Positions 5,033 to 50,962 of a stretch of 64,000 nt of DNA are shown here, one piece after another. The notes below the pieces were generated by a model. It ran no database searches, was not told the DNA's origin, and saw nothing but the letters and a program-made list of their open reading frames with translations. The number at the start of each line of letters is the position of its first letter. Within the stretch, counting starts at the first letter, position 1. Both the position numbers and the translations under genes were made by a program. Origin of the DNA: Rhizaria sp. SCN 62-66 (taxonomy: Eukaryota); contig MEDY01000078.1 in assembly GCA_001724265.1 (NCBI GenBank), positions 62,001 through 126,000 of the forward strand, written 5' to 3'.

Positions 5033-7361
5033 TCACTTCTTCTCCTCGCAGCCCCGGCCGCTCTTGCTCACTGCGCCATCTTCTTCCTCGTCGTCATCGT
5101 CGTCGTCTGTTGGGGCGTAGTCAGGATGCGTGTCCTGGTAGGTCTTCTCAATCGACGGCGGCGCGGGCACAGCCTTACGGGGGGGCGGGCGGTCCGGCGC
5201 CTTGTTCGCCGACGCGGCGATCGCAGCGAGTGACCCTTGAGGCTTGTGGGCAGGCGCCTGACGCGCAGATGCAGCAGTCGTGGCAGTCGAAGTGGCAGCA
5301 GCAGCAGGATGAGGAACAGCAGCAGCAGGACGATGAACAGCAGCAGCAGGACGATGAACAGCAGCAGCAGGAACAGCTGCAGTTCCTGAAGCGTGGTTTG
5401 CGCTTGCATCTGCAGCAGTGCCGCCACAACCCAGTTGGTGTTGCTCTAGTTCTTGGTGCTACAGTCGTTGAATCCGCTCTGCAGCCTCCTGCTCCAGCTC
5501 CGCTCGCCGCCTCAAAAAATCAAGCTCGCGCCCCGACATATCGCGCTTCCTGCATTCGCGTTTCTCACGCTCCCGCTGCGCGCGCTGCTCCAGCTCCCTC
5601 TGAGTCGCCAGCTCCAGCTGCTGCTGCTGCCGCTGCTCCTCGAGCTGCCGCCGCAACTGTTCCAGCTCCTGCTGCTGCCGCTGAAGCCGCCCCTCAAGTT
5701 CCAGCCGAACACGCTCCTGCTCCTGCTTCTCTCGCCGCAACGGCTCCAGCTCCTGCTGCTGCCGCCGAAGCCGCCCCTCAAGTTCCAGCCGAACACGCTC
5801 CTGCTCCTGCTTCTCTCGCCGCAACGGCTCCAGCTCCTGCTGCTGCCGCCGAAGCTTGCCGCAGTTGCTCTTTAAACTGCCGCTGCTGCTGCTCCTGCTG
5901 CAAACGCGCTTGTTCATGCTGTCGCAGCCGTTCTTGCTGCAGCTGCTGCTCCTGCTAATGTCGTAAGCGCGCACGCTCTTGCTCGAGCTCTCGGCGATGC
6001 TGCCCCCGCGCCTGTGCAAGTGCAAGCTCAATCAAACGCACAGCTTCCCGTGCGCGCTCCAGCTCCCGCACCCGTTCCAGCTCGCGCCTCTACTGCTCCG
6101 CCAGCAGCATCGCGCACTGGGCGCGCTCGACCTCCCGGACGCGCTCGATCGTGAGCTGCCGCTGCGGTTCGTGTGCCTGCTCGGGCTCACGCTCCTGCGC
6201 TTGCACCTGCGCTCGCTGCTGCTGTTGCAGCTGTAGCTGCTGCTGCCGCAGAGCCGCAAACGCGCGGTGGCGGCGGTATAGCTGGAGCGCGCAGCACGCA
6301 GTGACGCCCAGCAGCGCCGCGAACATAAGTTTGCCCCACCAACGCTCCCGCGCGAGAGCTGAGGCCGCAGACGCGCCCGCGCCCGCCGCGCTGAGATGAG
6401 GACCGATGTCCCCAGCAGATGCGGCGCCAGCAGCCGAGTCAAGACCAAAGTCAAAGACAGAGCGTGAATCACCCTCTGCCACAGCCAAAGCCACGGTCAC
6501 CAGAGGCACGGGGCCGGTGCCACCGCCGTCGAAGTCGAGCCCCTCTCCTGGCATCTCTTCTGGCATCTCTCCTGGCATCTCTGCGAGCATCTCTGCTGAC
6601 GCCTCTGCGGGCGCAGCTGCTGACGCGCCGACCAGCCACCTCGCCACGCTGGTGACCGACGAGAGCGAGCTCGCCGCGGCATTGGCGGAGCCGCTGGCGA
6701 CCGCGTTGACGACGCCGGCTGCGAATGAGGCCGAGCTCGACGCGACAGCCTCAGCGGGCCCCGAGCTCGCCGACATGGCGGCTGACGCGGCGTCGGAAAC
6801 CGCGTTGAGGGCCGACGCAGACGCGGTCGCGGAGGCGGCGGCCGCGGCGGGGCCCGCGCTCGAGGAGAGCGCGGCGGAGGCGACGTTGGACACGGCGGAT
6901 GCGGCAGAGGTTGAGGCCGCGGCGACTGAGGAGGCGACGGTACCAGCCGCCGAGGCGGTCATGCTGGCGGCGGTGCCGGCGGCCGAGTATATGGAGCTGA
7001 GCCAACCGGCTCCAGACTGCATGGTTCAAGTTTTAGAAGCGGTGTGAAGTCATGAAGAGACGAATGGGATCAATGTGAGCTTGGGACGATGGGGTCATAA
7101 AAACGGTGTATAGCAAGAACAATGGACTAATAAAGGGCATCATGAAGACATTTAGCCATAAACAGAAACAGAGCGCTTGTGCGTTAAAGGACGGACCTCT
7201 ACGGCTCCGCTAGGAGGCGGTGGTGGCGATAGGAGCGAGCTGTCGATGTTCTCCAATGATGATGGTGGCGGAGGGGTTCTCCAAAGCAACGACGATGCGC
7301 TTATCACATACGAGCCCAAGACACCGCGGATACCGGAATTACCCGAGTCATTCGGCTACAT
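5033..7361 (-). CDS. Ala/Ser-rich, single-TM, Q/E/R-rich coiled-coil protein (family member 1); in-frame TAGs and a frameshift, possibly a pseudogene
   Basis: Putative exon 7361-7197 (Pro-rich), intron 7196-7017, exon 7016-5033. Hydrophobic segment LMFAALLGVTACCALQLY. TAGs at 6090, 5955, 5459 and possibly 7356. Frameshift near 5855. Ends IEKTYQDTHPDYAPTDDDD...EKK-TGA. Start uncertain. Confidence 0.55.
5683..5855. repeat. 84-bp tandem duplication encoding LRRQQQELEPLRREKQEQERVRLELEGR on the - strand
   Basis: Units start at 5683 and 5767 with matching sequence; a third unit starts at 5851. Confidence 0.9.
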
Positions 7362-9256: not shown

Positions 9257-12022
9257 TTACATGGACTCGAAACCTCGGAAAGAAACTGTCACCTTTGCTG
9301 CGCTTGCGCCAGCGCCGCAGCTCCCGGCTCGACAACGCGCCTCGAAGCACTGAAGCACCGCCGCGTCAAACGGCTCGCTCCCGCTGTCGCGCTTCGCCGG
9401 CTCCTCGCCCGCCGCGCACGACAGCACGCGGCCGACGGGAACGGCGCCGCGCAGCAGACTCGCCGGGCAGGGCTTGAAGACGATAAACCATGGCGTGTCG
9501 CGCGGCCCGACCTACGCGGGGTACTGCTCGGGAACTGGGGCGCGGGCGCGCATCAGCACGGTGCCGACGGGGTACACCACTTCCGCCGCCGCCGCCGCTG
9601 CCGTCGCCGCCGCTGACGACGACGACGACGACGACGACGCTGCAGCTGCGTCTGTGTCTGTGGCAGTAGCAGCAGCAGTTGTTGCAGTAGCAGGTGCTGT
9701 TGCCGCTGCGTCTTCGCCGTACACGACATCGCTCTCCGGAAGCGGCATAGAGGACGCAGGCGCAGTAAAAGAGGCAGTGGCAGGCGCTGTGGCGCAAGGA
9801 AGTCCGGAGTCGTGACTGTAGAACATCGTGACGTACGGCAGCGACGCCCCCGCGCAATGCGCGGACGGTGCGAAGCACGTGTGCAGGTCGCTACCCATCG
9901 CATCGTCGAGCACTGCCGCGCGGAAATAGGCCGCGTTGCAGGGAAACCGCTCGTCATCGAGCTTGATCAGCTTCATGTAGGTCTGCTACTGTGGATGTGC
10001 GGCGCTGCGGGGAAGGTACATCGCCATGAGGACGTTGGAGGCCACGTGCCACGCGCTCACCTTAGCCCGCGTGTGGACGAGAACGAGCTCGCGCGCGCGC
10101 GCCCGCAGCACCGCCAGCGCCGCGGGCGACGGCGGCGCGCCGCTGTGTATGCGCAGCTGCTGCGACACAGACGGCCGTGGCCGAAAGGCTTTGCTGCCGG
10201 AGTCGAAGGCGAGCCGCCGCGGGTAGCCGCCAGCTTCTAGAATGAGCGCGGCGTGCGCGTCAAGCACTGCCTTCCAGTCTGGTTGCGGGCTCCCAGTGCA
10301 CGTGCGCAGGTCTGCCAGCGTCTGGAGCCGGAGCGCCTCTGTCGCGGGCGTGTCGGGCGCGAGCAAGTCCAGGCTTGCGAGCAGCGCGCGCAACTGTGCC
10401 ATCTCGTGCGATATAGGTCCGGCGTTGTCACCTTGCACGCAGTCGTCAAAGCGCAGTAGATCGAGCGCCTGTGGGCCCCGGCAGGCAACGAACTCGACCG
10501 CGACGGGGTTTTGCGACGCAGGGCCACTGCCCCGCATCACAGTGCCAGATGATGTGTCGATGAAGCTCATCATCATTATGCGCAGTACACGCAAAAGCCG
10601 AGTGATATGTTCAATATTTGACGGATAATCAGTGTTCTGTCTTGCAATAGCATCTCGATCACAGTTAGCCACAGCAAAGTTCCTCAGAAAATTGCAGCAA
10701 AGCCGCACAGCGCCGTCGGCCAGCAGCTGCTGCGCCGCATATAACCGGTCCGTGGCGGCACTGAGAACGCTGTCAAAGACACGCACGGAATTGACTGCCA
10801 ACGTAACATCGTTAGACAACAGTGAACCGCAGAAGTCATCGTTAAGGCAACGTAAAACCCGCGCAAAACCGTCGAGTGAGGCTATCTCCAGAGCAAAGGC
10901 GGGAAATCGGGATGCCAAAGGGGCGGAGACCGCCATAAACCAAACTGCCGTCTCAAGATCACGCATTTTGATCTCCCGAAAGCTAGTCAAAACTTGCTCA
11001 ATCCGCTGGGGAGTGAAAGCTCGCTCAAACGCGGTGTCATCAAATAAGTCTAAAAACGAAGCAAAATGTTGAAGAATGTCGTGGTCTGCGAGCCTCGTCA
11101 GCAGCGGATCAAACTCCTCACTGGCCGCAAAATCCGCCAGGGCCTCACAGCGCATCGCGTCTCTGTCGGCGCCGATGACAGCACAGCCGCCGTCGGTGTC
11201 ACAACGCGCACTGGCAACGTTGTCGTCGCTGTCGCGCTTAAACACACAGTGCAGGGCTTGGTAGATGGGGACGAAGACGGCGAGACTCAACCGACGCGGC
11301 AGTAAATGGCGGCGAATGATGTTGCGCAGCAGCGGAATAAACGCGGACAAGGTGGTGTAAGAAAGCTGAGTCGCACTTTTGTTGTCAGTCAGACTGTTCG
11401 TCGTCGCTGTCGGAGCCGTACTCATGAGGAAGGTGGCGAGAAGCTTGCCTAGCGCACGGTGATAGTCGTCGCCATACCGCGCCATCTCAGACAGCGGCTC
11501 CTCCGGAGGCTGTTGCAGCTGGTCAACCTCACACATGTGCGCAAATACGTGCGCCAGCGCAGCAAGCCTCTCCGGCGCCGCTATCGCGGTCTTGCGGGCG
11601 ACGCCGCTGACCAGGTCGAACAGGGTCGTCACGACGCAAAGCTGCTGCGCTAGGCCGTGGCGGCGCAGAACCGCGAGAAAGCTCGCAATAACGCCGCTCT
11701 CCGCAAGCAACTCGCGGCCACCCGTGAACCATATCATGTAGGCGAACAGGTTGATGCTCATGTTGATCCGGTCCGTGGCAGCGACCGCGTTTGTTTTCGC
11801 GACGGTGGAGTCGGCGTCGGCGACTGTGTCGCCCGAGAACACGAGCGACTGCATCAGCAGCGGGACAACCCCGCTTTCGCGGAGCACGTCAACACGAGAC
11901 TGGACGGTAAACGCGTCCCGGAGCTCGGTCAGAGCGGCCAAATCGATGTCCAGAGCCGCGATACGGTTCGCCGCGACGTGCAGGCGGAGGACGGCTCGCT
12001 CAACCGGCGACAAAGCGCTCAT
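9257..12022 (-). CDS. About 921-aa intronless protein: helical (possibly ARM-like) N-terminal region and degenerate cyclophilin-like C-terminal domain; 2 in-frame TAG
   Basis: ORFs 9986-12022 and 9512-9976 share one frame, joined by TAG (HPQ*QTYMKLIKLDDERFP). A second TAG at 9512 (GTVLMRARAPVPEQYPA*VGPRDTPWFIVFKPCPASLLRGAVPVGRVL) continues to TAA at 9257, where AT-rich DNA begins. Confidence 0.65.
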
Positions 12023-13122: not shown

Positions 13123-14661
<1,539 letters not shown>

Positions 14662-22743: not shown

Positions 22744-22778
22744 GCAGCAGGGGCATCTACAACAGCAGACGTCACCCT

Positions 22779-22824
<46 letters not shown>

Positions 22825-29253: not shown

Positions 29254-29284
<31 letters not shown>

Positions 29285-29346
29285 GTGGCGGCAGCAGCCG
29301 AGCCGCCAGACTTGCCCTTGCCAGAGCGGTCTTTGCGGGGCGGCAT
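26396..29346 (-). CDS. MATE family multidrug/toxin efflux transporter with long disordered N-terminus; 1 in-frame TAG
   Basis: Exons 29346-28404, 28230-27080, 26839-26396 (846 codons). MATE motifs TDIAVLGRV...LAGAAVG, LAGQAYGAGN..LVGLYLQ, LGFKGSPIA, EEWQLE, SVRVSRHLGAG, LSGQ|GRP, GLWAG. TAG at 29143 joins ORFs 29143-29379 and 28330-29031. Stop TGA. Confidence 0.9.
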
Positions 29347-30164
29347 TGCGTGCGCGAGGGAGTACCCGCAACAAAGCAAGTCTTAGAGTCACGACGACAG
29401 TTGTGCCGCAGGAGCAGAGAGGCAGTGGTGAGCGGGTTGAAGTCGCGATGAAGAGGCGAGGAAGAAAAAGGTAGCTATAGACGCACAGAAAGTTAAAAAA
29501 GGATGAAATAAAAATTAATAACAGAATGAGTTGTTGTAATATCATACGTTCCGGTGAAATTTTAAAAAGACTTGGTACAACAAAGCCAGAGACGACTTTC
29601 AAGGGGAGGGCAGTGACTGTTCGAAGGTCGAGGAGTGCGAGAATTGTCGAAGGGCTTGTGAATCACAAAGTTGTTTTTGGGATGTCTTATAATAGAATCA
29701 TATATCAAACTCAGCATAAATTACAATATCACGTATGAAAAACATTTGACGATGATATGAGTGCGGAATCGGTTCTTCCGTGAAGCCTTCGCTCAATCAC
29801 AACGACCCCTTCTTGCCTTTCCGTGACGCAACGCGTCATTTCTCCGAACTTAGACTCCCAAACACAGATTTAACTACTTGTTTGTAGAGTGAAGATAAAA
29901 TATTTGAGGATGTTACAAAATGCACAGTTAAGTTTTCAATAAAAGTGTTTTATTTCTTAAAAGTCCAAGTTCAGCGAAATAAACTTCGCTTAAGTCTCGT
30001 GCGACACTTTTTTCAACTATCTAACTTGTTCATCATTATCATGTTTTCGCGCGATAAATTTTGTCACCATCACAGTGAATTGCTGTTTTCAAACATAAAA
30101 CAACACATAAGCATCCCTTATCATAATAAATATCCATTTAATTCTTGTTCAAGACAGTTTTTAC

Positions 30165-33100
30165 TCACTTCTTGTTTGCCTTCTTCGCCTTCTCGAGCAC
30201 TGCGCACTCCTTCACAAACGCGAACAAAGTCTCGACCAGAGCCCTCTTCCGGCCCGCGTCGTCGCCGCGACCAAACACAGCGCCAGCCCCGTCTGCCGCG
30301 GCCTCCGCGAGCTCCATCATCGCGCCCGCCGCGAAGTTAAGTCGTCCCAGCCTGGTGTCACCGCCGCCGTCACCGCTGCTCACGGTCACGCCGCGGTCGC
30401 AGACAGCGTCGAGCGCGGTCGCAGCTTCAGTGATGAGGCGCTCCGCACTGGGGCCGCTGCTGCGCCTGCGTCCGCGGCCGCTGGCCCCGCCGCCACTGCT
30501 GCCTGTGTTGGCGGCGTTGCGTTTGCCGACTGTGGCTGAGGAGCCAGCGAAGAGGTGTGAGACGTCGACGGAGCGCGGTTTCAGCAGCAGAGAGTGGTCG
30601 GAGACGCCCAGGACCGAGAAAATCGACGAAGATGCGTCACTCTTATCGGCAATCGTCGCAGTGTCAATGCTTGTGTTGCTCTGGCTGCTGCCACCGAGTG
30701 CAAGGGAAGACAAAGCCAGTGCCAACATGTCACCAGCATCCACATCTGCACTGCAACTGCTCGTCTTGTCAGCGCTTGAGTTTGCGCTCGTCGTTGTTGC
30801 AGTTTGCAAGGGTAAGAAGTGCTCGCATTCAACACCGCCACTGACCATTGCCGCCGCACGCGCAGCGTCCACCTCGCGCCTGCTTAAACGGGCACCCTTA
30901 GACGAGGCACCCTTAGACTTCGACTTTGAGGGGCTGAGATTGATGACACCGTCTTCATCCTCACGGCCACTCTCACCATCGTCGTCGTCGTTGTTGCTGT
31001 CAGCGTCACTGCTGCTGCTGCCGCTGCTGCTCTTCTTGTCGAAGCGCAACCCCTTGTGCTGCCTGCGCAGCCGGGCCTCGGCCGCGGCGGCCGCGTCATC
31101 GCCCGCCAGCTGCTGCAGCATCTGCAGCGTCGTCGATGACACCGGCGTCGCGTATGCAAACACTTCCTTAAGCTCCTCCTTGGAGAAGGCGCCGCCAGCA
31201 ACGCCGCCAGCGCCGGCAGCAGCAGCACCACCCGTGGCAGCGGCAGAAGATGCGCCGCCGTCGCCACCGAGTCGCCCGCCGCCGCTGCCGCCGAGCCCGA
31301 CGGCGGCGACACTGAGCGCGTGTTTATACGCCTGCTTGCGGTACGTCACCTCTTCAACGGTGGCCGCCGTAATGAGTCGGTACGCGACCACGTGCCTGCG
31401 CTGGCCCAGCCGGTAGCAGCGGTCCACAGCCTGCGCGTCGGCCGCCGGGTTCCACGACGGGTCGACCACGATCACGCGGTCGGCGGCGGTGAGGTTCAAC
31501 CCGACGCCGGCCGCCGTGGTCGTAAGCAAAAACAGCGGCGTGGTCGCACCGGGCGCCTGGAAGCGCGCGCGGCGGACCTCGCGCTCCGCGGGCGGTACGG
31601 AGCCATCGATGCGCTCGTGTCCGAGGGAGAGCGCGCTGGCCAGCCGCTGCACCAGGTCCAGGGTCTTTGTGGAGCGCGAGAAGACAAGGGTGCGGTGGCC
31701 GCGGGAGGAGAGCACCGTGAACAGGTGCACTAGAACGCGCATTTTGCTCGACTCCAGACTCAGATCCAGCAATGACATCCCAGCTGATGCTTGTTGTTTG
31801 TGCTGTTGCTGCTGCTGGTTTGTTGCGATCGCGAATGAAGGAGGCAGACAAAGACAGGAGGGAACAACGCCCGCCGCCAGGTCTGCGCGCAACAACAGCT
31901 CTAGACTCGCCAGGCCAGGGTCGTCGCACTTGATATTCCTGCGATCGCTCTTAACGAGACTGCTGCTGCTGTTGTTGCTGTTTTGATAAGAGAGCGCAAA
32001 GTCACGGAGCGTGAGCAACACTGCCGCGTAGCGCCGGTCATGCGCCGCCTCTGCCTCCGCTTCCTCAGACAACACCTGGGCGTTTGCAGCGCCGCCGCTG
32101 CTGAGGGCGCGCGCGCGAGCGTTGCGGACTGACTCTAGCGCATCAATGAGCACGCGATCTGTGAACGAACGGCCGTCGTCCTCTTCGTCGTCGGCCTCCG
32201 AGTCGGCGTTGGCTTCAGACTCGGGGCCAGTGCACGTGTCGCGCTTGCAGTCTGTGCCGGCAATACCAATAGAATTGCTCTTCTTGCTAGAGCCGCTCTT
32301 GCTGCTGCTGCTGCTGCTGCTGCTGCGCATCCCAGAGCCAGAGGTAGAGCTGGAGCTAGAGCTGGAGCTCTTGCTCTTGCCGCTCGAGCTGGCACTCTTG
32401 ACCGCGGTATTGGCGCTCTTCTTGCCGCCCTTAGCGCGGTAGAGCAGCTCCTCACCGCCGCCACCCGCACCGGAGACGCCACTTAGACTGAGGCCGAGAT
32501 CCGTGGCCGCCGCGCCCGCAGCGATGCTCTTGTTGTTCAGGTTCGAGAGCGCAAGCGTGGGGAATGCGCTCGAGTAGTCGACGTCGGGGTCAAGCAGACG
32601 CGGGTGGTCGCAGAGCTTCTTGAGCAGCGTCAGCACCGCGAGCGGGCTGCGGGACTCAGCGGCAGACGACTGCGGGTGCGAAGATGGCACGCGCAGAAAC
32701 AAAGAGATATAGAGATAACACAATTTAAGTGAAATTAGATGATGGAATATTAATTATCTAATTGGAATATAGCCGGATAAATAGATATATTTCTCAAGTT
32801 AATCGACGTGATATATACACTTTGAATGCCATTTGTTTCGTTTTCAGACTGCGTACCTTGATGGCCTTAGTTTTGAGCACGGCCTGGTAAAGCTGCCTCT
32901 GCACCGGAGACAGGGGTACCCACACAACGAGCTCCGTCTTCTTGATACCTTCTAAGCTCATCTCAGCGCTGTTGCCGCCAACGCTGCTGTTGCCGTTCGT
33001 GCTCGCAGCAGATTTGCTATCTTTTGCCACAGTCACACTCGCCGTCGCAGCCGAAGGGTTCGCATTAGCGGCGCGAGAAAGAGCTTTGTCGTCGTTGTTG

Positions 33101-36100
33101 TTGCTGCTGTTGTTCAGACGGTCAGTGCTCGTCTTCGCCACCGCAGCCGCCGCATCAGCCGCCGCCGCTCGCAACAGCGCCAGAGCCTCATTCCCATTCA
33201 CACTCACACTCTCACTAGACACACGCAGACTACAGGAACTCGTGCCGAGCTTGTCCCCGAGCTTGTCCCGCGTCCCCGTCGTCGCGACGCCCAGCGCGCT
33301 CTTGGCGATGCGCGCGCCCCACGCGGTCACGTGTGCCGCGTGTGCCCGGTTGCGCGCGGCCGCGGCCTGCGTGCCGGGCTTGTCGCGGCGCAGGAAGAAC
33401 GGGTACAGAGACCGGCGCAGGCTCGCGGCGGCCGCGGCGGCCTGCAGCCTGATCGCTAAAGACGCCGTCTTGAGCTAAGTAACAAAAAGAACAAGCAGCG
33501 ATGTGACAGAAGACTAATGTGAGATCAAACTACGACCAACTCAAGACTAATAAATAACATTCAAGGATACAACGACAATATGCTTTTGAGTAATCATACT
33601 ATATCGAGTTATTTGTTGAAGTATGGAGTTAAACGTACGTGTCCCTCGTGAATAGGCTCGCGGAACTTTTGCTTGAACTAGCTTTGCGGGCCAAACAGCT
33701 TGCCATTGCACGCCAGATCGAATAGCGACCAGACTTCGTCGACGGCGTTCTGCAGCGGCGTGCCGGTCAGCAGCACGCGGCGCCGCGCGCGCACGGCCGC
33801 GGCGGCGCGGTAGGACTCCGTCAGGTGGTTGCGGAAGCGGTGCGCTTCGTCGATGAACAGGTAGTCCCATTCGGGCACCTTTTTCTTGTTGTCTTCTGTG
33901 TGAGTATATAAACGCACGGTAAAAGTCAAAATAAAAGAAGAGTTTAGAAAAACATACAAAATTGCGTGTTAATAGTAGTTACTTGGATTAAAACTTGATG
34001 CTCCTGATTCAATGTGTTATATATATGCAAACATCTACAATGGTTGACGTACCCGAGTTCTTGTCCGGGTGGTTCAGCAAGTGCACGTTAAGCGAGAGAG
34101 CCTTGGGCGTGATGACCACGACGCCGCCCTTGCGCCACACCGCCGCCATGCCGTTCTCGCGGCTCTGCTTTGAGGTCCACTCGCCAAAGTTGCTCACGCG
34201 CGCGCCCGGCGCCCAGTGGCCCAGCTCGGAGACCCACTGTGCCACCGTGGCCAGCGGCACCACCACCAGCGCCTTGGTCCTCACGCCACTGTAGCCAGAC
34301 GCGTCACGCGCACGCGCATCAACAGCAGCAGCAGCAGTGCCGGTACCCGCGGCGGTGTTGGCGCTGACTGCAACCGCGCCGCCTGCGGCGGTGTGCATGA
34401 CGCAGCGGAGGTAGGCGGCGACCTGGACCGTTTTGCCCAGCCCCATGTCGTCGCCCAGCATGCCGCCGCGCTGCGCGCTGAGCGACAGCCCCCAGAGCCA
34501 AAGCAGCGACTCGCGCTGGTAAGGGAACACGCGGGCCCAGGTGCCCTCGCGGGGGATCAGGAGGCTGCCGCGGATGAGGCCCGCCAAGGCCTTCTCGAGC
34601 TCTGCGTCCTCCTTGTCGTCGCTATCCTCGTCCTCTTCCTTATTTTCAGTATTGTTGTCGGCGTTCTTGCTCTTGGTAGACTTGGTGTTGCTGCCAATAA
34701 TAGCCCAGTTAAAGCAGCCACTAGGAGCGTGCAGCGAAAGCAAAGCGCGGTGCTGCTTTTGTTGCTGCCTCTTGAGCTGCTTACGGTCAATCACCGCGTT
34801 GTCACCGTGTTGCGACGAGAGCGCCTCAGGCAGCAGCTGCTGTTGCTGCGCAGTGACACGACGGACAGCGCTCAGCAAACCATTCGCGTTCACGCCGTTG
34901 CCACAGGGAGGGTACATCTCCGCGATCGCAACCCGCGCCTCGTGTTCAACCGCGACTGGCACCAGCGCGCGCACCGCCGCCGCCACGGCCTCCGGCTTGA
35001 CCGCGACGGCGACAACGTCCCCGCTCACGGCGTTGAGCGCCAGCGAGACCAAGGGGCTCGCGCGCGGCCGCCATGCGCCCGCGGAGGCGCAGACCGTGCT
35101 GACGTCCGTGCTCAGCGCGTCGTCCACGTCGTCGCCGGCAGCAGCGTCGTTGCAATCACTACCGCCGTCGTCGTCGTCGAGCATGCGCCGAGGCTTGTCG
35201 TCTGCGCTGTCGCGCGACTCCGCCGCGGCCACAGTCGCCGGCGCCGGCGCCGCGGCCGTCACAGCGCGTACGACTGCGTCGACCCAACCGTCAGGCGTCT
35301 CCTTCCGCAGTAGCTTCTGTGTCTGCGCCTGGTTCAGCCCGCCCGCGGCCGCGAGCCGCCGGCGCCGCGCCACCAGGCCCCGCGCGGCCGCGGCAACGCG
35401 GGCCGCCGTCTCGAGGCTCGCGCCTGCGGCCGCAGCGGGGCCCGCGGCGTCGCCCAGCAGCGCGGCGGCCACCAGCAGCCACGGCGGCAGCAGCGGGGCC
35501 AGGGCGTGGTGCAGGGTAGCGCTGGCCGCTGCTGCCGTCGCATTGTCACCGCCGCTTGCACTTCCGCCGGCGGCGCTTGCGTTCGGGCTGTCTGCGGTGA
35601 GGAGTGGGGGCAGGTCTAAGGGGTTTGCACCGATGTAAGGGCCTTCCTGCGGGTCGAGCATCGCCATCACGCCGCGTGCGGCCGAATCACTGACTAGGAG
35701 GTAACCTTGACCAGCAGCGGCCTCAGCAGCAGCAGAGTTCGAGTGATAGCAAGAGTTGGAGCTGGAGCTGGAGCTGGAACCCCAGACTGAGAGGCTGGCT
35801 GCCTCTGCGGCTGCGTTGACCTCCGCGTCTTCCCCAGCACCCATGCCATTAAACACAGAGGCCAGCCCCTTAGACTTGCCACCCATGGCGATACTACTGC
35901 TGTTGCTGATCGTGTTGTTATTGCTGTTGTTGTTAGCGCAAGCAGCGAGCGCGAGCAGCGCCGCGGTGTGTACGCAGTGCGCCGAGGCGGGGGCCAGCGG
36001 CCGCAGCGCCCACGGCGAGTCGTGCAGCTCGCGCTTGCGGCACTGCTTCTGCAGCCGCGCGACCGCGCTCTCGAGTTCCTTCACGCTCACCGTAGATGCA

Positions 36101-37722
36101 GCTGCTGTGCTGTTCTCTGTTGTAGCAGCGGCTTCAGCGTCGGTGTCGTCGGCGGCGGCGGTGAGCGTGAGCGCAGTGGCGGGCAGCGCGCGGGCCGCTG
36201 TCAGCAGAGCGAGCGCGCGTTGTGCGAGGACTAAGGCGATCACCAGGCCCTGACTGCGCTTAAACGACACATCCGCGTCGTCATCGTCGTCGTCACTGGC
36301 GGAGTCACGCTCTTCAGCAACAGATTGCTTCGTATTCGCGACTGTGACAGCGGGCGCATGGTGAGCGGCAGTGAGCGACGCTGTCTTGTCGGCCTTGGGC
36401 GTGCCGTACTGGGCCCATTTGTCGTGCTCCGCAGACCGGCCCAGCTCCCACCTGGGCGCCACTACCTCAGCCCCACTTGCAGTCGCAGTCGACGCTGCAG
36501 AGGCAGTCGCGATCTTGCTGTCGGCTTTTGTAGCTTTGGCTGTCTTCTTGTTCGCGGTAGGGTAGTTGCGTGCGTAAGCTTCCCAAGCTTGAGAGCGGGC
36601 GACCAATACAGAGACTGAGGCGATGACCCATGGAGGCAACGCAGGCTCGATACTCGCGGTGCTCACAGTCGTTTGACTGCTGATCACAGTCGCAGGGTGG
36701 GTTGCGCTCACAGTCAGCGAGCTTGTGTCCACGATCGTTCCGGGACGAGCGATAAGAGGCGCCGGAGCAGTGCTGCTCACGGTCACTGAGGGAGTCAAAC
36801 CCACAGTCACTTGCTGAGTATTGCTCACGGTCACCGGCGCGGCGATCGCGTTTGGAGTCGCGTTGATGTCGAAGCTCGTGGCGCTGGTTGGGGTGATAGC
36901 GGAGTCAGCGTCGGACTTGCGCTTGTTCTTGCGCTCCCTTTGCTTCTCTTTCTCTTGCTGCAGTAGCAGAGCCTTCTGAGCCTGTTGCAGCTCCCACGCT
37001 TCGCGCGGACCGAGCGCTCTCGTGATTCCTCCACTCGTACTGCTCGTGCCAATGCCAGTGCCAGCGCCAGTGTTGCTGGGTGTGTGTGTGTTAAGTTGCG
37101 CCCTGTTAAAATGACAGTGAGCGCCAACTCCTCCGGTCATGGTGGGCCCACTAACTGGCCGGGCGCCGGACAACAGAGTCACCGTCTTATCCATCGTCGA
37201 GGTAGCGGCACCAAGGGCGGTTGTCGTGGGCGGCCGCGCTGAGGTCGAGGATGACTGCTGCTGTTGCTGCTGCAGCTGTTGCTGTTGCTGCTTCTTGGGG
37301 AGAGCAGGTTTAGGTCCATTGTCACTGCTCCTATTGTCAAAGACAGATCCGGCAATCGCTGACAGTTCAGCAAGCGACAAGGGCTGGCGGGCACGCGCAG
37401 CGCCAAACCCAGAGACAGAGGTAGAGCTGGAGGTTGAGCTCGAGCCAAAGCCAGACTGGGGTCGAGCCTGCGAGGGTACCGTCGTCGTTGCAGTTGCAGG
37501 GCGGGTGCTCTTGGCAAAGAAGTCCGTTGAGGAGCTCGGAATCTTGGCAGTAGGCACGTTCTCGCTTTCAATGAAGGGATTGTACAGAGGCTCGGGTGTG
37601 TGGGGCTTGACAGCAGGTGGAGCTGGGGCAGCCTGGGGCTTGCGCTGGGGAGCGGGACCGCTAGCACTTGCGAGCATGCTTAAAAAGGCGTCGGAGACGG
37701 CCATTTTCGGTGGCGCAGACAT
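30165..37722 (-). CDS. ERCC6L: SNF2-family DNA translocase, ERCC6L/PICH-like (about 2349 aa); 1 in-frame TAG in the ATPase lobe
   Basis: Exons 37722-34053, 33895-33639, 33474-32857, 32669-30165. Motifs GGMLGDDMGLGKT, WDYLFIDEAH, LLTGTPLQN, PFFLRRDK, RSPLAVLTLLKKLCDHPRLL (PICH-like), GLNLTAADRV, WNPAADAQAVDRCYRLGQ. TAG at 33678. Stop TGA. Confidence 0.88.
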
Positions 37723-38205
37723 GCTTACGCGCGTAAATCAAGCTGGCCGCTGACTATGCACGCACGCAGACGTAGTTTAGGGAGAGGGATCGGATTTAGT
37801 TCGAGTGAGCTGAGAGCAAGTTAGAGAAGTGAGGTGCAGATTCAGGAATCAGCTTTTAGAAAATAACCTTTAAATATGTTAGAAAATAAAGATAATTCTG
37901 CCAATGAGCTGCTGTATAATTTTGATTTATCGATTTTGGAGCTCACAATCCTACGCTGTTTGTCCACCGTTTGGGGCGCGGGGCGCAACGGCTATCTTGC
38001 GGCTCGACCACAAGCAGTTCGCGCGAAGTTACATTTAAGTGCGACGAGTCAAGATGAAATGTTTTAAGTATGAAAACAACTCACAATATATAAAATCACA
38101 TTCTTTATTAATACATGGACGTTTACCTTCACACAGCTTCATTGGACTCTGCAATGGTGCGGTGCAATGCTTCAGTGACGCGTAACATCGCTATGACGCA
38201 GCATT

Positions 38206-41200
38206 TTACGCCTGCTTACGGCTGCGCTCGAAAGCGCGCGTAAAAATAGCCTTCTCCAGCTGCTTTGCCGCAGCAGCACGCTGCTCAATACCCTCAATCA
38301 GAGTCAATATAACCTACATTCGTAATACAAACAGTAAACAAAGCTTGTGAGTGGTTGTGGTGACAAAGCAAACGCAACAAGATTAGCAGCAGATAAACGG
38401 CTGACAGGACAGTTGTTCAAGATACACGTGGTGTAGTTGTTGACACAAATACGACATACCTTGTCTCCCGGCTTGACTTCGAGCGCTTTGCGCGCGTCAA
38501 CAAGAGCACCATCGAGATCTGCGAGACGCACGCGCTCGTGTGCACGGCGCAAAAGTGACTTGATATGCGTCCTAAAAAGAAGAAAACAAAAAATAAGCAA
38601 AAGGTTAGTTTTTGATGAAGACGATAATGTTTAAAAAAACACTCGCGTGCATATGACCTCGTTTAGATGATATATTGCGAGTTGCGGTTTTCACGTACGG
38701 GTCGATTTTGAGCGCCTCATCCGTCGCCTCCCTAACGCCGCTCTTGTCGCCTACGCGCGCGCGCGACGCGGCCATGTTGCTAAAGCACGCCACGCGCAGC
38801 GCGCGCACGGCGGCCGCCGCGGGGCCCGGCAGGGGGGCGTCGACGTGGAAGAGACCGAGGGCGCGGGCCCACAGGCGCTCACAGCGCTCCGCTACGACCC
38901 AACAGAGAGAAACAAAAGACAACAGAGATGACAAAAGTATGAGCAGATGACCTGAAAAATTATCATTTCGGTGCTGAGATATGATAATATATGTAATTTA
39001 TCGTACCAGTGTGCGGCCCGCGCGCGTAATACACGTTTGCGATGTCTTTGAGGCGGCGCATGAGTACAAGCTTGCCCGCAGTCCAGGCATCGAGCCGCTC
39101 AGGCTCAGGCTCGACAGGCGCAGGCTGAACAGGCTCAGGCTCCTGGGCGACCACAGACGTAGACTCAGGCTTTGTCTCGGAGTCAGGTTTAGTCTGCGCC
39201 TCAGATTCCTCCTCGGTTGATGAGGCCGCCGCTGCTGCTGGCACTGCGACATCAGAGTCAGCATTCGCATCTTCAGAGGCAATCTTAGCAGCAGTCTCAG
39301 CAGCAGCGGCGTCAGCGGCAGCGGCGTCAGCGTCAGCGGCGTCAGCGGCAGCGGCGTCAGCGGCAGCCTTGGCCTCCGCAGCGGCCGCCGCGTCTGCCTC
39401 CGCCGCCAGCGCCGCCGCCGCCGCATTGACTGCAGCTGTGGTCTCAGAGTCGGGTGCGAAGTCTACCAAATGGAGCTCGATGTACAGCGCCGCGCCAGCG
39501 GGGCTCGGGCTCGTTACAGCTGCACTCGCAGATGCGTCAGCTGCGGAGGGGACAGTGGGTGCAGGCTCGAAGCTAGAGAGAGATACAACACACATAAAAC
39601 AAACAGATGGAGTCAGCACGATATTAAAAAAACATAAGCATCCATGAAATAGGAATATTGTTGAAACAAACATTTGACCATTTAATTATCATCAGTTCGT
39701 AATTTCCTCGTTAATAAGTCAAGCTGGCGTACCCGTAGGGCCCCTTGGCCCAGACCCGCGCGACCTCGCCCCGGGCGCAGGCTGCCACGGCCTCCTCCAC
39801 GGCCCACGGCAAGTGCGTCGCGGCGCCGTCGACCACAAACGAGGTGAGCTCGCCGCTGTCGGCGTAACCGCCGAGCTGTTGCTCGCTACTGTGCTGTTGA
39901 CTGCACTTAGACTCGTCGCTGTGATCTAAGTAGGGCATTCCAGGAGCGAAGGGGTCTAAGGGGCGCGTCCATGCGTCGTGTAGGAAGACGCGAGGGGGCA
40001 GCCACTTACCCACACCAACAAGGGTACTTACACTGCTCTCGCTGCTGCTGCTGTTGTTGTTGTTGTTAGTGCTATAGCTAGCGCCAGGGCTCGGTGTGTT
40101 GCTTAGAGTCGGGTTTGCGGCGTAGGCGGTGGCGCTGTCGTTGAGAGCGCTGCCCGGGGTGTAGACGCCTCCGACAGTGCCCGTCGACAGCAGCGATACG
40201 AGCGAGTCAGCGCTGCTATGGCAGCTCGTGCCCAGAGCACCACTCGGCGCCGCGTTACTGTCACTGTCAGAGCTGCGGTCAGTGGCCGTGTTCGCGGCGT
40301 GAGAGCTTGACGCGGAAGAGGCGACTGTGACGGTAACGGGAACGCCAGACATCAGCATCGGGACACGCGAGGCGCCGGTGATAGCGCGCGCGACCGAGTC
40401 TAAGGGGGTACTTAGACCGCCGAACACGGCCTCGACCGCAGCCCACTCCTGCGCGCTCACAGTCACTTCGCCGCCCATAGTCATAGTCTCACTGGTGCTG
40501 CTGCCACTGCCGCTGCTGCTGCTGCTGCTGTCAGACTGCTGCTGCTGCGGAGGCTGCCACAGCGGCAGCGCGCCGCCCATCACGTCGTGTAATGAAACAG
40601 TGGCGATGCGCAAGCGGAGCCAGACGCGGTCACCGGGACGCGGGCGCCGCGAGTCGCCGTTCAGCGGGGAGGAAGATAAGCCGTCGCTGGAGGAGGGGGT
40701 CAGCGCCGGAGACAGCAGTGGTAACCCACCGCGAGTACTTGTGATACCATCATCATCACCATCAGCGGTACTAAAGGGTGAAAAGGGAGCGAAACCAAGT
40801 GTTTCCTTGACTAGCCGGCCGTTTTCGTCGATATTCTTCCTCCCAGTGACCAGCAGAGCGACGATGCGCACCTCGACCCAGCTGCCCAGAGCAGGCAACG
40901 TACTTGCACTAGGACCAGGGGTGGTACTGACATCCGCGCTAGAGGAACTGAGACTGGAGCCTGTGATGCTCGGGCGAGGGTTGCGGCCAATAGCGTCGGC
41001 GGGGAAAAGAGCGTCGAGGCTAGAGGCACCACGGTCGCGCATTGCCACGGCCTGTTGCAGTTGTGGTCAGACGCAAGTGCAATGCCGAGCAAAGGAAAAC
41101 GCACATTCCAAGAGAAAAGACACGTATGTCAGCCAACAAGAACTCTTACAAGTAACATGAAAAATACCAAAAACATCAAGGACATAAAGATAAAAAAATA

Positions 41201-42219
41201 TAGTCACGTGATATATAGCAGATTTGTTCACGCTTAGTGATGTATAAGAACACCTACCTGTCGGTACTCGTTATGCGCCTTGACGACCTGCGCCCGCGCC
41301 CGCGCCCGCGCCTCCCTGCGGACGGCCGCCTTCTCCTCGTTGCCCCGGGCCAGCGCGTCGTCCCGCGCGTGCGCTGCGGCGGCCGCGCGGGCCCGGTCCA
41401 GCGGCGTCGTCTTGACGCCCCGGGGTCCGAAGCCGCCGGTGGCTTCGTCGTCGGAGGACGCCGGCAGCGGCGGCGGCGGCGGCGGCGGCGGCCCGAAAAC
41501 CAGGGGCGCAAAGTGCGGCGGCACGGTGTCCGGCAGCAGCCGAAACACGAAGGACGCGGCCTCGCCCTCACAGAGGGAGGAGAACATGAGCCCGGCGTCG
41601 GTGTCGGCGAAGGCTGCGGTGTAAGTGTAGGTGCAATCCAAGCATTAACAAAGATAATAAGAGAGATTCAGAAGAGGTGAGGAAATTGCGAACAAAATAT
41701 TATGTCTCAAACAAAAACTGTTAGAACATATACCGATATTTGAGATTAATAAATGATACAGAGCTTGAGTCTTGCTCTTGAGCGTAGAAGATATGAGTGG
41801 TGTTAGGTCAGAGATGTCGAGAGAGTAGATACGAAGAGTAGAGGTGGCAATGACGTACTCGCGTGCATGCGCAGCGAGCGCGGGCGCTTTCCTTTCGTAG
41901 AAAAATACACAATTTGCTGTGCCTGGCTCTGACCCTGCGTTGGAGTCTCGTTTGCGCCGGTGTTGTTTGACTCGGGCTTTGCAGCAGAGCGAATCTCGTA
42001 GTGCACCGTCAGGTCCATGCCCGTGGCGGCGCGCCACGTGCGATCCGCCGGCGCGGGCACCAGCACGCGCTTGGTGATGCCGCGGGACGCGAGCGTCGGC
42101 GGCGCGACGGGCTGCGGGGACGCAACAGTAGGCTTCGCAGTGGTCGCGACAGCTGGCTGATCGGAGACAGCTGCAAGTGTCCCAGACCCTGGCTGCGACT
42201 GCGGTGGGCTGCTAGACAT
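38206..42219 (-). CDS. FKBP-like domains plus C-terminal TPR (immunophilin-type co-chaperone), degenerate, with many insertions
   Basis: Seven exons 42219-41859, 41613-41258, 41051-39733, 39572-39007, 38891-38699, 38571-38460, 38313-38206 with consistent phases. GITKRVL...LTVHYEI; AVEEAVAACARGEVARVWAKGPYG...LYIELHLVDF; TPR LKDIANVYY...ACFSNMAA...ALKIDPTHIKSLLRRA. Stop TAA. Confidence 0.75.
40398..40417. repeat. 20-bp hairpin element GTCTAAG-GGGGTA-CTTAGAC
   Basis: Perfect 7-bp inverted arms inside an FKBP-gene exon. Confidence 0.8.
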
Positions 42220-45465: not shown

Positions 45466-48400
45466 TTAATTGCGCTGTGTAACAATCGGTCGCCCCCACG
45501 GAACAGTGGCAAAACCGAGCTTGAGTTGCGGCGGTAAATCATCCCTCGTCATCACACCACCAGAACCAGCATTACTCGCAGTAGTTGTCGTAACAGCGGT
45601 CTTGGTCGCATTCAGACTGGCATTCGCAGTCCCGTTGCAGTGCTTATTGCTGCTCGCATGTTTATTGCCATGGTTGAGCGGACTGGCGTCGTACCTCTGC
45701 GGCAGTAGCGGCACAGTGCTACTATTGGTGCTGCGCAGCGCGGCCCGGCTCGCCATCAGCGCGCTCAGCTCCGCGCGCGTCTCCCCGTCGAGCGACGGGT
45801 TCGGCCGCCGCGGCGGCGGTTGGCGTTGCTGCGAGCGCGCGCTGCCGCTGGGCTTGAACTCGCTGAAGCTGCCGTTGAGACTGTTGCCGTTGTTGTGGTG
45901 CTGAGGAGGCTGATCGTTATTCCTCGCGTGGCTGTGCGCGTGACTGGCGGCGCAGCTGAGGGCGCCGGCCTGGCTGTGGACAGGGCTGACCGCGAGACTT
46001 TGGTTGAGACTGTGGCTGTGGCTGTGGGGGTTGCGCGTGCTGCTATGACTCGCCGCTCTTGAGACACTGACGCCGACACCGACACCGGCAGCGTCAGCCT
46101 CAGCCTCAGCGCTGCTGCCGCGGCGGGCGCTGGCGCTACTGCTATAAGACTGATTACTGCGCTGTGCCTGCGTCTGCGCCTGCGCCTGCAACTGTGAGAT
46201 GTTCGAAGGCCCTTTCCCGGCCGCGAAAGTTCCCGGCTTGATGTAAGGGCTTGGCGTAAACCACGGCGCGTTGGTGCTGGCGCTCACGGTCACTTTCGGC
46301 CTATTCCACAGCGCCGACCTCTCAGACCCGGCGGTCGCGGGCCGCCGGTCAGACGGCGGGTACGGCTCGAACGGAGGCACAGGCGGCTTGTCTTTGATTT
46401 GCTGCAGCTTCTCAGTGTAGTATTTCTCGTTTGCTTCAGCTTCGTCGCTGAACGGGATGATGACGCCAGTGACGCTCATCTGGCCGGCGGGCCTGCTGTT
46501 CTTGGCAGTGCTTGTGTGCGTCGCGAGTGCTGGGTCGGGGTTGTTCCGAAAGTAAGCCGCGAGGTCGTCGTAAGCACGGCAGCGGCAGCAGCTGCCGCCA
46601 ATGGCAGTCTCGCTGCCACGAGCATGGTGAATACCGCGACCTCGGGGACTACGACTGTGGTGGTCGTGGTCATGCTGTTTATCTTCGGCCTGAGGCTCTT
46701 GCTGCTGCTGCTGCTGCTCATCATGTTGTTGCTGCTGCAGCTGTTGCTGCTGCTGCAGCTGCTGCGGTTGTTTCGCGGGCGATTGTGATCGCTCACGCGG
46801 TTTGTGGCACACGCACTCACACTCACCTTTCTTCCCCCCAAAGTTGCCGTGATTGTCACCAGCGCTGTTGTTTTCGAGCCGCAACACGAGCCTCTCAGCG
46901 CGGCCGCGGTCACACCACCAGTTTTCCAGCCACAGACCAGCATCCTGACTCTGGTTCTGACTCTGGCCCTGGCCCTGGCCCTGGCTGGGCTGTGAACTCT
47001 GAGTCTGATCGTGCGTGTTGTGCTAACGGTCTTGGTCTTGGTCTTGCTGTTGCTGTTGCTTTGCCTGCTGCCGTTGCTACTGCCGCTGCTGCTGCGCCTG
47101 CTGCCGCCGCAGCCGCCTCTGCGGCATTTCCCGCGCCCCGCCCCAAGGCCCCAGGCACGGACCCGGCAGCAGCGACTGCACAGTCGCAGCCCCCGCCTCG
47201 TTACTATTGAGCCAGGGGTCGGACGGCGGCTGCGACTAAGGCCGCGGCTGAGTCAGCGTGCGCAGGAATGCAGGGCTCAGCAGAGGCGGCATTGCAACAA
47301 CGCTGGCGCGAACGCCGCTCTGCGCAGCTGCCGTCTTGTCATTGGTTGCATTGCCATCAGCGCCAGTTGGGTTGCTGCCCGCGTCTTTCTGCAGCGGTGT
47401 CTCCTGCGCATGCGGCTTAGCTTCCTTTCCGCGCGGCTTGATGCCCCCCAGCTGCGGCCTGTTCTCGGACCTGCTCAGCGCCATGAGCGCACAATCGTCC
47501 CATGGGTCCTCGCCGTCTCCACTCCCACTCCCAGTCGCCAATCCGCCGCCACCAAAGCGGCCGGGCCGCAGCGCGTCGCTTTTACCGCTGCCACCGCCAC
47601 CGCCACTGCTGCTACTGCTGCTGCTGTTGTTGGTAGAGGTGTTCACAGTGGCGGGGCGGCGATTCAACCACTTGTTACGCTCTTCAGCGGTGAGGCTGCT
47701 GGCCGCATCGCCAGTCTTCTCAGCGTTGGCGGTCGCGTGGTTGCTCGGGTTTGAGCTGCTGTTGTTGCTGTTGTTGCGTTTGCGGGGACTAATGTGGCCA
47801 ACAAGCAGCTCCTGTGCAGTAATAGTGCGGGCGGTGTTGCCCTTACTACTCTTGCTCTCACTGCTTTTAGTAGGATTATCAGCGCCAGCAGGCTCAGCGT
47901 TAGCGATTGTGTTTTGATGTTGCTTGCCGTGGACGTCATAATCGCCAGAGCCGTTGCCACCCGCCGAGGCGGCAGTGGCGGCGGCGACAGCAACGGCTAG
48001 CGCCCGCAGCGATACCTGGCCAGCGGTACTGCTGCTTTGACTCGCAGCATGTTTCGTTTTAGCATTTTCAGTAGCGTTGGATTCGCGTTGACGACGTGCG
48101 CTCGTTTGACGATCAGTCGCCCAAGAACCGTCAACAGCACTTGGATTGTTGTTCTCGGTCCCGTTGTCATTCATCCCGGCGCTATTGCTGGGATTGTTAT
48201 TGTCGTGATTGCTGTAGTTGTTGTTGCTTTGACTGCGATACTGGCTGTTGGCCTCGGACACGGCCTCGACCAGGTACCGCCGCCGCAGCCGGCCCACGGC
48301 GCGCACGCTGGACGCGACCGTGGGCAGCGCAAACGCGTCCGCGGCGCGGCCAATAACCGGCCGCTCTTGTCTGTGCTGACGCTCTTGCTTCTGCCTTTGT

Positions 48401-50445
48401 CTGTGCCGCCGCTGCTGCTGCTGCTGCTGATGCTGCTAATGCTGCTCACGGTCACTCTGCTCACGGCCACTCTGCTCACCTCCGTGGCGGCGGCGGCCGC
48501 TGTCAGGAGGACTGGGGTCTCTGCTATGGCGGCCGCTCGGGTGATACGAGTGATGGCTGTGACCATCGGCGGCGTCAATGTCCCTGCGGCTGATAAAGCG
48601 GCTGCGGTAGTTGTCATCTTTGTGGCCGTCGTCGCGGTCCAGCTTCTCCATCAGCCGCGTCGCCATGGCGGGCATCAGGTAGAAGCTCTGCGACGCCACC
48701 GCCACCGCAGCACTCCGCTTCTCGTCGTCGCTCAGGTAGAAATCGCTGTCGTCGAACTTGTCGCTGTGATACCGCCCGTGCGCGCCGCCGCCGCCGCCAG
48801 CGGCGCGTTTGTCGCCGTTGTCGTGCTGTGCGCTGTGAGGATGACGACCGCTCTCGTGCTGTTGGCCGTTGTCGCCGTTGATGATGCCGTGGTTGCCGTT
48901 GCGCTGCTGGGGACTGCGGTTCCCGGGTCCGCTCCGAGGCGAGGCTCTGGCACTGGTGGATGGGGACCCTGTGCTCTTGTTGTTATGATTGTTGTAGCGG
49001 CTCACTGGAGACTCCTTGTAACTGCTGTTGTTGCTGTTGCTGTTGCTGCGGATATGGCTCTGACTGACGGGGGACTCGTTGCGATGGGCGAAGCGTGGTC
49101 TCGCGGTCTTTTTGTTTGGAGGAGTCACAGGAAACTCGGTGCTCTTGCCATTATGATCGACTGCAGGCGCATCATGGCCCTGGCTGTGGTGGAATGCGCT
49201 TTTCTGATCGTGGTTGCGACGAAGCGTGCTGTTGGACGCCGGTGTCGCCGCGGTGGAGGGCGCAGGCGCCGCCTGGCCGAACGAGTGTAGGACCACGCCT
49301 TTGCCAGCGATAGAGAATACGCCCGATACAGGGCTCGGCGTCGCAGGTGCAGCAACAGCAGCAGCGGTAGTTGCCGCATTGTCAGGATGCTTTTTGATGT
49401 CATTATTGTTGTTGTTGTTGTTGACTGAAGGAATGTAAGCGTCAGCCGAGCCGGGAGGGCCGCCAGTGTAGGTGCCCATTGGATACGCACTGCCATTTAG
49501 ACCGCCGCGCTCGTCGCGGCTGTCAGGGCCAGCACCGTCAGCATCGATGCCGACGCCGATGCCGATGTGGGGGGTCGAGTTGGTCTTGAGCGGCCACAGT
49601 CCGCGCATATCACTGTCCGGACCGCGCACGTCGCTGTCTGGCATACTACCCCCGGCCTCCCGCTCCCGCTCCCGCTCACGGTCGCGGTCGCCCGCGATCA
49701 CAGAGGACGAGAAATCGGCGGCGGCGGGGGCCGGGCCGCTGGTCAGGGAGCGGAACAACATGTTGCCATCGTGCTGTTTAACGCTGTCGGGCGCGCTGTC
49801 AAAGTCGTTATTGCTCATCGAGTCTCGGTAGTAGTTGTTATGGCCGCCGTTGTTGTTGCTGTGGTTGCTGTAGGCGTCGCTGTCTCTGCCGCCAACGCCC
49901 GCAAACTTGCCCACCCCTGCCGCCCCCGCCCCCGCCCCCGCCATAGTGGCAGAAGCTTGTCGTGACTGCTATGACGCGCCGGGGATTTCGTCGGAGGCCA
50001 CCGCAGAGCCGGAGACGAAAGCTTCCGACGGCAAGGCCTCGGAGCGGGACGAACCTGTCGCTGGCGCCGAAGCCGAAGCCGAAGCCGAGATCGAGGCGAA
50101 CGCGGACGCGGCGACTGAAGCAGACGACGACGATTCGCGGTCCTCCATCACTGAGCCGAGCCTCTGGAAGGCGAACGGGAAGCCCGACAGCGGGTCCGCG
50201 TGCACGGCGGTGTACGGCGCGTCGGTGAGCACCGCGCCGCCGGGCGCGACCGCGGGCGCAACAGCGGGGACGGTGGCCGCGGCCGCGGTTGGCGAGACGA
50301 CGGAGACGTGGGGGTGCGGCGCGGCCGACAGCGTGAAGCCGCTATGCGCACCGGGGTCGGGGGGATACCCGGCGCCGGATAAGGGCATGCTGCTATAATC
50401 GACGGGGTACGCGGGCGCGGGGGCGGGACCGTGCGAAGGCTGCAT
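45466..50445 (-). CDS. Large (about 1659 aa) low-complexity, probably disordered hypothetical protein; 5 in-frame TAG
   Basis: ORFs 49969-50445, 48436-49944, 47236-48306 and 45466-46887 share one frame with uniform coding-like composition, broken only by TAG at 49969, 48436, 47236, 47077 and 47023. Ends with TAA at the AT-rich boundary. Confidence 0.75.
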
Positions 50446-50962
50446 GGTACGCGAGGGCGGGCCGCAGCGCGGGGCTATGAGAGTGCAGAAGAAGGGGTGC
50501 TGGAGAGAGACGAAGGAAGGCGTGATGTGAGCACTAAGCAGCGTTTCACGTATTATTATTTCAAATAAAAATACACCACATCAGTTATGTTCACGAAATG
50601 ATTGTGGTGTTTCTCCTGACGGATGGTACAGGACGTGGACACGCGATTTAGAGAGACGATCGAGCCACCCGTTGGGGTCCAGAAACTCGCCCGTTACACC
50701 ATCATACCTTCCACACGATCTTTCACTCTTGAGTTCTCGTTCAGAAAACCGTCTATGCAACTGTTACCTTTATGATCGAATAATTCAAACCTCATTTTAT
50801 TGAAAACCCTTTTAACACTCCTCACTGATCGTTTTCTTCTTCGCTATATCCATTCTTCTCTTTTCACACTGAATCAGACCTTCGCACCCACCCACTTCCC
50901 CACCAACCACTCGACAGCCCCAGCCTCCCCTGCTTCACAGCACCCACAGCCCCTGCTTTCCG

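Follow-up and report, generated by a model that had tools for sequence, protein, structure and literature searches.

Architecture of the SNF2 Gene

The analysed window (64,000 nucleotides of contig MEDY01000078.1, positions 62,001 to 126,000) carries on its minus strand a predicted four-exon gene for an SNF2 ATPase, in which one TAG triplet stands in frame inside the conserved ATPase lobe. Six other genes of the window contain 13 more TAGs in frame. Together with these and with the lack of TAG at 12 gene ends, this triplet suggests that UAG is likely to be read as an amino acid in this organism. The gene is composed as follows (lengths in nucleotides, nt).

34053..37722, minus strand: exon 1, with a putative ATG at 37722; matches positions 1-117 of the SNF2-rel_dom profile (E 1.9e-19)
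33896..34052, minus strand: intron 1, 157 nt, AT-rich, GTACGT...CAG
33639..33895, minus strand: exon 2, with the DEAH box, the TGTPLQN motif and the in-frame TAG
33678..33680, minus strand: the in-frame TAG, residue 72 of exon 2, in the context PQS-TAG-FKQ
33475..33638, minus strand: intron 2, 164 nt, GTACGT...TAG
32857..33474, minus strand: exon 3, 206 codons, LKTASLAIRLQ...SLYPFFLRRDK, with AAG at its 3' end before GTACGC
32670..32856, minus strand: intron 3, 187 nt, GTACGC...CAG
30165..32669, minus strand: exon 4, with Helicase_C, motifs IV-VI and the terminal TGA at 30167..30165

The exons (3670 + 257 + 618 + 2505 nt) add up to 7050 nt, corresponding to 2349 codons and the terminal TGA, and the TAG at 33680..33678 is the sole internal stop. 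No second lesion was found among the 2349 codons, in line with the initial annotation, which had described an otherwise intact gene of roughly 2350 codons. Exon 1 begins with approximately 1000 low-complexity residues, followed by the SNF2 motifs from motif I onward; it ends in phase 1 (...AACTCGG, with the GTACGT donor from 34052), and the interrupted codon is completed by the first two bases of exon 2. Exon 2 is preceded by the acceptor ...cacag and closes with CAC before the GTACGT donor starting at 33638. Its in-frame translation reads (E)DNKKKVPEWDYLFIDEAHRFRNHLTESYRAAAAVRARRRVLLTGTPLQNAVDEVWSLFDLACNGKLFGPQS-TAG-FKQKFREPIHEGH, with ...LFGPQS to the left of the triplet. The limits of exon 2, its GTACGT donor and the PFFLRRDK of exon 3 had been read correctly in every detail by the initial annotation.

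The Pfam family PF00176 (SNF2-rel_dom) matched the last 216 residues of exon 1 with the E value given above, and in exon 2 it matched residues 7-82 of 85 (profile positions 124-198 of 290, E 1.1e-19), thus spanning the TAG at residue 72. The placement of the triplet within the SNF2 ATPase lobe was thereby borne out, as the profile match crosses it. PF00271 (Helicase_C) was intact in exon 4 (E 4.7e-20). Both SNF2 lobes are present, the N-lobe with motifs I, II (DEAH) and III and the second one with Helicase_C, and GLGKT, DEAH and TGTPLQN are all readable. About 1053 codons on the 3' side of the helicase TAG remain open over three exons with intact splice sites.

Throughout the window the 5' splice sites are uniform (e.g., at 34052, 33638, 32856, 55983, 39732, and 59445): among 15 donor-like sites with a sharp drop in GC content, 13 read GTACG[TC] and two GTAAGT. 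The GC content is about 60-75% in exons and about 25-35% in introns.

Homologues of the SNF2 ATPase

In the structure searches, exon 2 matched the Sulfolobus Rad54-like SNF2 protein 1z63 (E 5.9e-16), Rad26 (5vvr, E 2.1e-12) and ERCC6 (7oo3, E 1e-10), and the top named sequence matches were ERCC6L-like, with 32-33% identity for the best of them and 31-34% over the N-lobe. At the column of the helicase TAG, through which the alignments of 1z63 and 5vvr continue, these structures have E and V, respectively. In a 15-row alignment, which includes 13 short library hits and the fragment of the window itself, F73, the residue directly after the TAG, is nearly invariant. The TAG column is variable: in the 143 of the 149 best library hits that aligned there it is occupied by T (59), E (17), A (12), D (11), S (11), Q (10) and others (23). 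This column thus cannot name the amino acid, as had been anticipated from the sequence.

Judged by these matches, the product is an unremarkable SNF2 ATPase that falls with ERCC6, Rad26 and ERCC6L, from which it differs by its low identity and by the low-complexity N-terminal region of ~1000 residues. The initial annotation had called it PICH-like. In PICH/ERCC6L, TPR repeats and a PICH family domain flank the ATPase, and the named ERCC6L match (P0155) carries TPR families. No TPR or other accessory domain was detected by Pfam in exons 1, 3 and 4 (E ≤ 0.01). The label therefore holds loosely, in that the best named matches are ERCC6L-like, whereas membership in PICH proper is unsupported, because no TPR or PICH-specific domain was found.

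Close homologues were found for none of the genes tried in the protein library searches. With exon 2 as the query, 16,640 matches at E ≤ 0.001 came from the exhaustive search of representatives; the only one at E ≤ 1e-30 was the window's own fragment, and the next-best matches had 39-49% identity. The word-index searches returned only the organism's own fragments and ERCC6L-like proteins, and the exact 40-mer over the helicase TAG was absent from the genome_contigs collection. The sole locus returned from metagenome_contigs was a bacterial SNF2 gene of high GC content without interruptions and was not considered further.

Accuracy of the Sequence at the TAG Triplets

The SNF2 gene occurs in bioreactor, wastewater, and activated-sludge metagenome runs from at least three studies, dated 2015-2025. 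Contigs of four runs were compared with positions 30100-50099 of the window. A contig of 3189 bases from run X3, whose study differs from the likely source, covered 33125..36313 without a single difference, the TAG included. The same was true for a contig of 906 bases from run X4 (33475..34380), which belongs to a third study, dated 2025. Both contigs represent DNA since they include the introns. Another X3 contig covered 46774..48027 with three TAGs of the Q-rich gene described below, again with no differences. No alternative letter was listed at any TAG, and the sequence was identical over samples dated 2015, 2017, and 2025. Reads with a sense codon at 33678-33680 had been named beforehand as a refutation; at the DNA level, the contigs of two other studies read TAG there. 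The helicase TAG is hence not an assembly error, and an explanation by faulty sequencing or assembly at this position, which these contigs contradict over 33125..36313 and 33475..34380, can practically be set aside.

Other Genes with In-Frame TAG Codons

The curated set comprised 31 coding segments of this single 64-kb window with 14,326 codons, in which 14 in-frame TAGs were found in 7 genes. Besides the single TAG of the SNF2 gene, five are in the Q-rich gene, two in the gene at 9257-11995, one in the exon upstream of MatE and three and two in the coiled-coil paralogues.

45466..50544, minus strand: Q-rich low-complexity gene, TAGs with first bases at 49971, 48438, 47238, 47079 and 47025, terminal TAA at 45468..45466
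9257..11995, minus strand: gene of unknown family, in-frame TAGs at 9988 and 9514, terminal TAA
28408..29364, minus strand: low-complexity exon upstream of the MatE exons, in-frame TAG at 29145
5036..7025, minus strand: coiled-coil gene, in-frame TAGs at 6092, 5957 and 5461, terminal TGA
13126..13938, minus strand: paralogous coiled-coil gene, in-frame TAGs at 13782 and 13479, terminal TGA

The Q-rich gene provides the longest such frame. When TAG is read through, six consecutive open reading frames (ORFs) in the same frame are fused at 45466..50580 into 1705 codons from stop to stop, with five TAGs, no TAA, no TGA and no frameshift. The region is GC-rich throughout and has no intron-like AT island. 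With TAA and TGA together at 2.1% per triplet over the six frames, a frame of this length would stay open with ln P = -36.8. TAGs in two other long frames, 19985-23080 (plus strand) and 43516-45021 (plus strand), were rejected as they lie in intron or off-frame stretches.

Each of the two coiled-coil paralogues (5036-7025 and 13126-14265, both on the minus strand) has a hydrophobic segment at its N-terminus and a coiled coil rich in Q, E and R. They have the acidic C-terminus PDY[AV]P[ST]DDDD in common, and an uninterrupted run of ~40 Q occurs in the second one. The gene at 5036-7025 is broken near 5840 (5700-6120), with ...QFKEQLRQ in one frame and ...LRRQQQELEPLRREKQ... in the next. The coding sequence here is GC-rich and lacks any intron signal, and the break resembles a +1 frame change by one extra base. 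A true frameshift, an indel introduced by the assembly and recoding are all conceivable.

Stop-Codon Statistics and Gene Ends

An uncurated test was also performed on all 3560 stop triplets in the six frames (TAA 978, TAG 830, TGA 1752). With codon log-odds trained on six stop-free ORFs, each triplet was scored by the best coding signal that could be reached in its own frame, directly upstream and directly downstream, before another stop intervened. Signals of at least 15 bits on both flanks were obtained for five TAGs and for no TAA or TGA, the probability of all five being TAG amounting to 6.8e-4. One of these five, the plus-strand TAG at 13360, is antisense to the Q-rich coiled-coil gene and was rejected as a candidate. 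At the threshold of at least 10 bits on both flanks, 11 TAGs were accompanied by two TAAs and three TGAs.

Thirteen apparent gene ends were inspected and one was dropped, its TAA lying in AT-rich sequence past the coding signal. The 12 remaining ends used TGA (9) and TAA (3). If TAA shared the meaning of TAG, about 3.8 in-frame TAAs would be expected from the CAA:CAG ratio of 154:574, and none was present. The simplest code in agreement with the lack of in-frame TAA and with the TGA and TAA gene ends has UAG as a sense codon and UAA and UGA as stops. The sense decoding of the helicase TAG, which the initial annotation had derived from this one gene, thus gains strong but indirect backing from the additional TAGs and from the gene ends, from which the decoding is inferred.

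The Amino Acid Probably Specified by UAG

Glutamine occupied position +1 or -1 of the TAG at 7 of the 14 sites and both positions (Q-TAG-Q) at two. Among the sites without adjacent Q are those in the SNF2 gene (S-TAG-F) and at 9514 (A-TAG-V), 29145 (F-TAG-A), and 47238 (P-TAG-S). A naive-Bayes classifier of the neighbouring residues called Q whatever the number of neighbours considered. Its lead over the next residue was 9.6 to 45 ln units, margins that overstate the case because neighbouring residues are not independent. As a control, the classifier was applied to sites of known residue from these genes. It recognised true Q in all 200 draws; the call Q was uncommon for sites that were truly L or S, and neither L nor S was among the three commonest calls for true Q.

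If UAG encodes glutamine, TAG accounts for 14 of the 742 putative Gln codons (1.9%), or ~1 per 1000 codons overall. Glutamine is our best guess from context, and we regard it as rather probable. Where UAG has been reassigned in the literature consulted, Gln is likewise the most frequent result (PMC11687900, PMC5304391).

Proposed Decoding and Its Alternatives

The preferred interpretation is that UAG is probably a codon for an amino acid in this organism. The window would be a part of the nuclear genome of a wastewater or bioreactor eukaryote with GC-rich exons and AT-rich introns, in which UAG would be decoded as an amino acid, most likely glutamine, with UGA and UAA still terminating genes. 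With UAG as sense, the helicase TAG would be an ordinary, rare sense codon, and the helicase would be made full length. The decoder would be a tRNA with the anticodon CUA, probably derived from tRNA-Gln, and eRF1 would have lost the recognition of UAG and kept that of UAA and UGA. A mechanism with tRNA(CUA) and an altered eRF1 has been proposed for Iotanema (PMC5304391, PMC9161772), in which the GTS motif of eRF1 is reported to be changed (PMC9161772).

Several observations weigh against this interpretation. The tRNA and Rfam scans found no tRNA gene and no Rfam family in the 64-kb window, and no eRF1 was present there. All 14 TAGs are on minus-strand genes (9330 codons, 400 CAG) and none occurred in 4996 plus-strand codons (174 CAG), a distribution with P ~0.006 if TAG were proportional to CAG, and unexplained. 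The 31 segments lack TAA and TGA by design, their frames having been chosen free of both, and the 12 gene ends are a small sample, in which the probability of no TAG is 0.03-0.07 at a TAG share of 20-25%. As for the residue, none of the 14 TAGs falls on a conserved Gln column; the SNF2 site, where Q is found in 10 of the 143 homologues, is the only one inside a conserved domain. The classifier control miscalled R, H, and E as Q in 35, 20, and 16 of 200 draws, respectively. The +1 change near 5840 in a TAG-bearing gene implies some decay or assembly error on the contig. Contigs of the polyA RNA run X8 lay only within exons (e.g., 34883-35171 and 32385-32602), and no intron of the SNF2 gene was matched among the 15 of 612 joints listed. 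For runs X8 and X9 ('RNA?') only short within-exon contigs were listed and none over exon 2; with regard to decoding, these RNA contigs are neutral, speaking neither for nor against it. Finally, the base 3' of the TAG is C at 8 of the 14 sites.

The last point leads to the most serious alternative, namely that UAG is still formally a stop codon which is read through, or has a context-dependent dual meaning, via near-cognate tRNA-Gln, and is tolerated mainly in Q-rich contexts. C after a stop codon is a weak-termination context. The eight sites correspond to the following codons CAG (5), CAA (1), and CAC (2), and the bias may result from the Q-run context or from selection for weak termination. 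The glutamines adjacent to half of the TAGs, the two Q-TAG-Q sites and the rarity of TAG (14 per 14,326 codons) suit such readthrough as well. In yeast, premature stops flanked by Q undergo readthrough in which Gln is inserted (PMC13192750). Owing to the C context and the yeast precedent, a leaky or dual UAG stays a live rival. It is nevertheless unlikely: the four sites listed above have no neighbouring Q, the gene with five TAGs would require efficient decoding at each of them, TAA shows no such behaviour and none of the 12 genes ends with TAG. That the triplets are true nonsense mutations, in a recent SNF2 pseudogene or null allele and in decaying low-complexity genes, is clearly less probable still. 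CAG is one transition away from TAG, most TAGs are in low-complexity genes without homologues and one of these genes has the frameshift-like break near 5840. Decay, however, would have had to produce TAG at all 14 sites and neither TAA nor TGA, even though CAA makes up 154 of the 728 CAA and CAG codons and TGA is the commonest out-of-frame stop triplet; it would also have left a frame of 1705 codons without frameshift and an SNF2 gene without a second lesion, with the sequence identical in the samples of the three years.

Splicing that removes the TAG but escaped recognition, or U-to-C editing of the transcript, would agree with the lack of an RNA contig over the helicase TAG among those listed. 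We consider either very improbable. The SNF2 profile matches both flanks of the triplet, and donor-like GTA[CA]G[TC] motifs near exon 2 occur only at its own two boundaries. The 100 bases around the TAG have 52% GC, as compared with the 25-35% of introns here, and the same treatment would be required at 13 other TAGs.

Comparison with Known Codes

Nuclear codes in which UAG and UAA differ in meaning are described from only a handful of lineages (PMC5304391, PMC11687900). The fornicate Iotanema spirale has a new meaning, probably Gln, for UAG alone and still terminates at UAA (PMC5304391, PMC9161772). The present genome differs from it by frequent spliceosomal introns and by an EttA-like ABCF protein with a long A/R/S-rich N-terminal extension, suggestive of a translating organelle. 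Phyllopharyngean ciliates and Protocruzia likewise have UAG for Gln without reassignment of UAA (PMC11687900). Here, in contrast, the window has ~60% GC, introns of 157-187 nt, GTACGT donors, and long low-complexity genes. Ciliate macronuclear DNA would be unlike this pattern. The introns with their GTACG[TC] donors, the GC-rich exons and the putatively organelle-targeted ABCF would argue against a ciliate or a fornicate.

In the rhizarian exLh and in Scotinosphaera, UAG alone is reassigned (to Leu and Ser, respectively) and UAA is a stop (PMC5304391, PMC11687900), whereas the residue context here leans slightly to Q rather than L or S. Carriers of code 6 (Amoeboaphelidium, oxymonads, Hexamita, ulvophytes, and many ciliates) share the assignment of UAG to Gln (PMC11687900, PMC6394959). 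In that code UAA is Gln as well, in contrast to the missing in-frame TAA and the three of 12 genes that seem to end with TAA in this window. No described wastewater or activated-sludge eukaryote with reassigned UAG was found among the papers listed by the literature searches, supplementary files aside, and the 64-kb window contained no rRNA or other marker gene. The organism is probably a further example of a type of nuclear code that is rare but already known. We only tentatively suggest that it represents an undescribed wastewater or bioreactor lineage with a GC-rich, intron-rich genome and an independently evolved split-UAR code (UAG for Gln, UAA and UGA as stops). If so, the rarity of UAG (~2% of Gln codons), the following-C bias and the absence of TAG from gene ends would fit a young reassignment or one that competes with termination, and the predominance of TGA as terminator, in a genome rich in GC, would have left UAG free to be captured.

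A non-ciliate, GC-rich carrier would add another independent origin of such a code, and one with rare UAG could be a natural intermediate for studying stop-codon capture. There is also a practical aspect: public protein collections contain exon 2 of the SNF2 gene cut off at the TAG, as a fragment of 79 residues, and a fragment of 678 residues from another gene. Gene callers truncate proteins at TAG, so the proteome is mis-predicted wherever standard codes are used.

Neighbouring Genes

The ABC-F ATPase is encoded by three exons at 42451-45018 (plus strand). The nearest Atlas neighbours of the ABCF exon are bacterial EttA proteins, and the A/R/S-rich N-terminal extension, of ~120 residues, resembles an organelle targeting peptide. 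A MatE transporter gene (PF01554, E 3.3e-48) lies at 26399-29364 (minus strand), with 28408-29364 as its apparent long low-complexity N-terminal exon. At 19735-23080 (plus strand), a BAR domain and a C-terminal SH3 domain are joined by a very long A/P/Q-rich linker in a gene ending with TGA, an arrangement which we take to be an amphiphysin/Rvs167-like layout.

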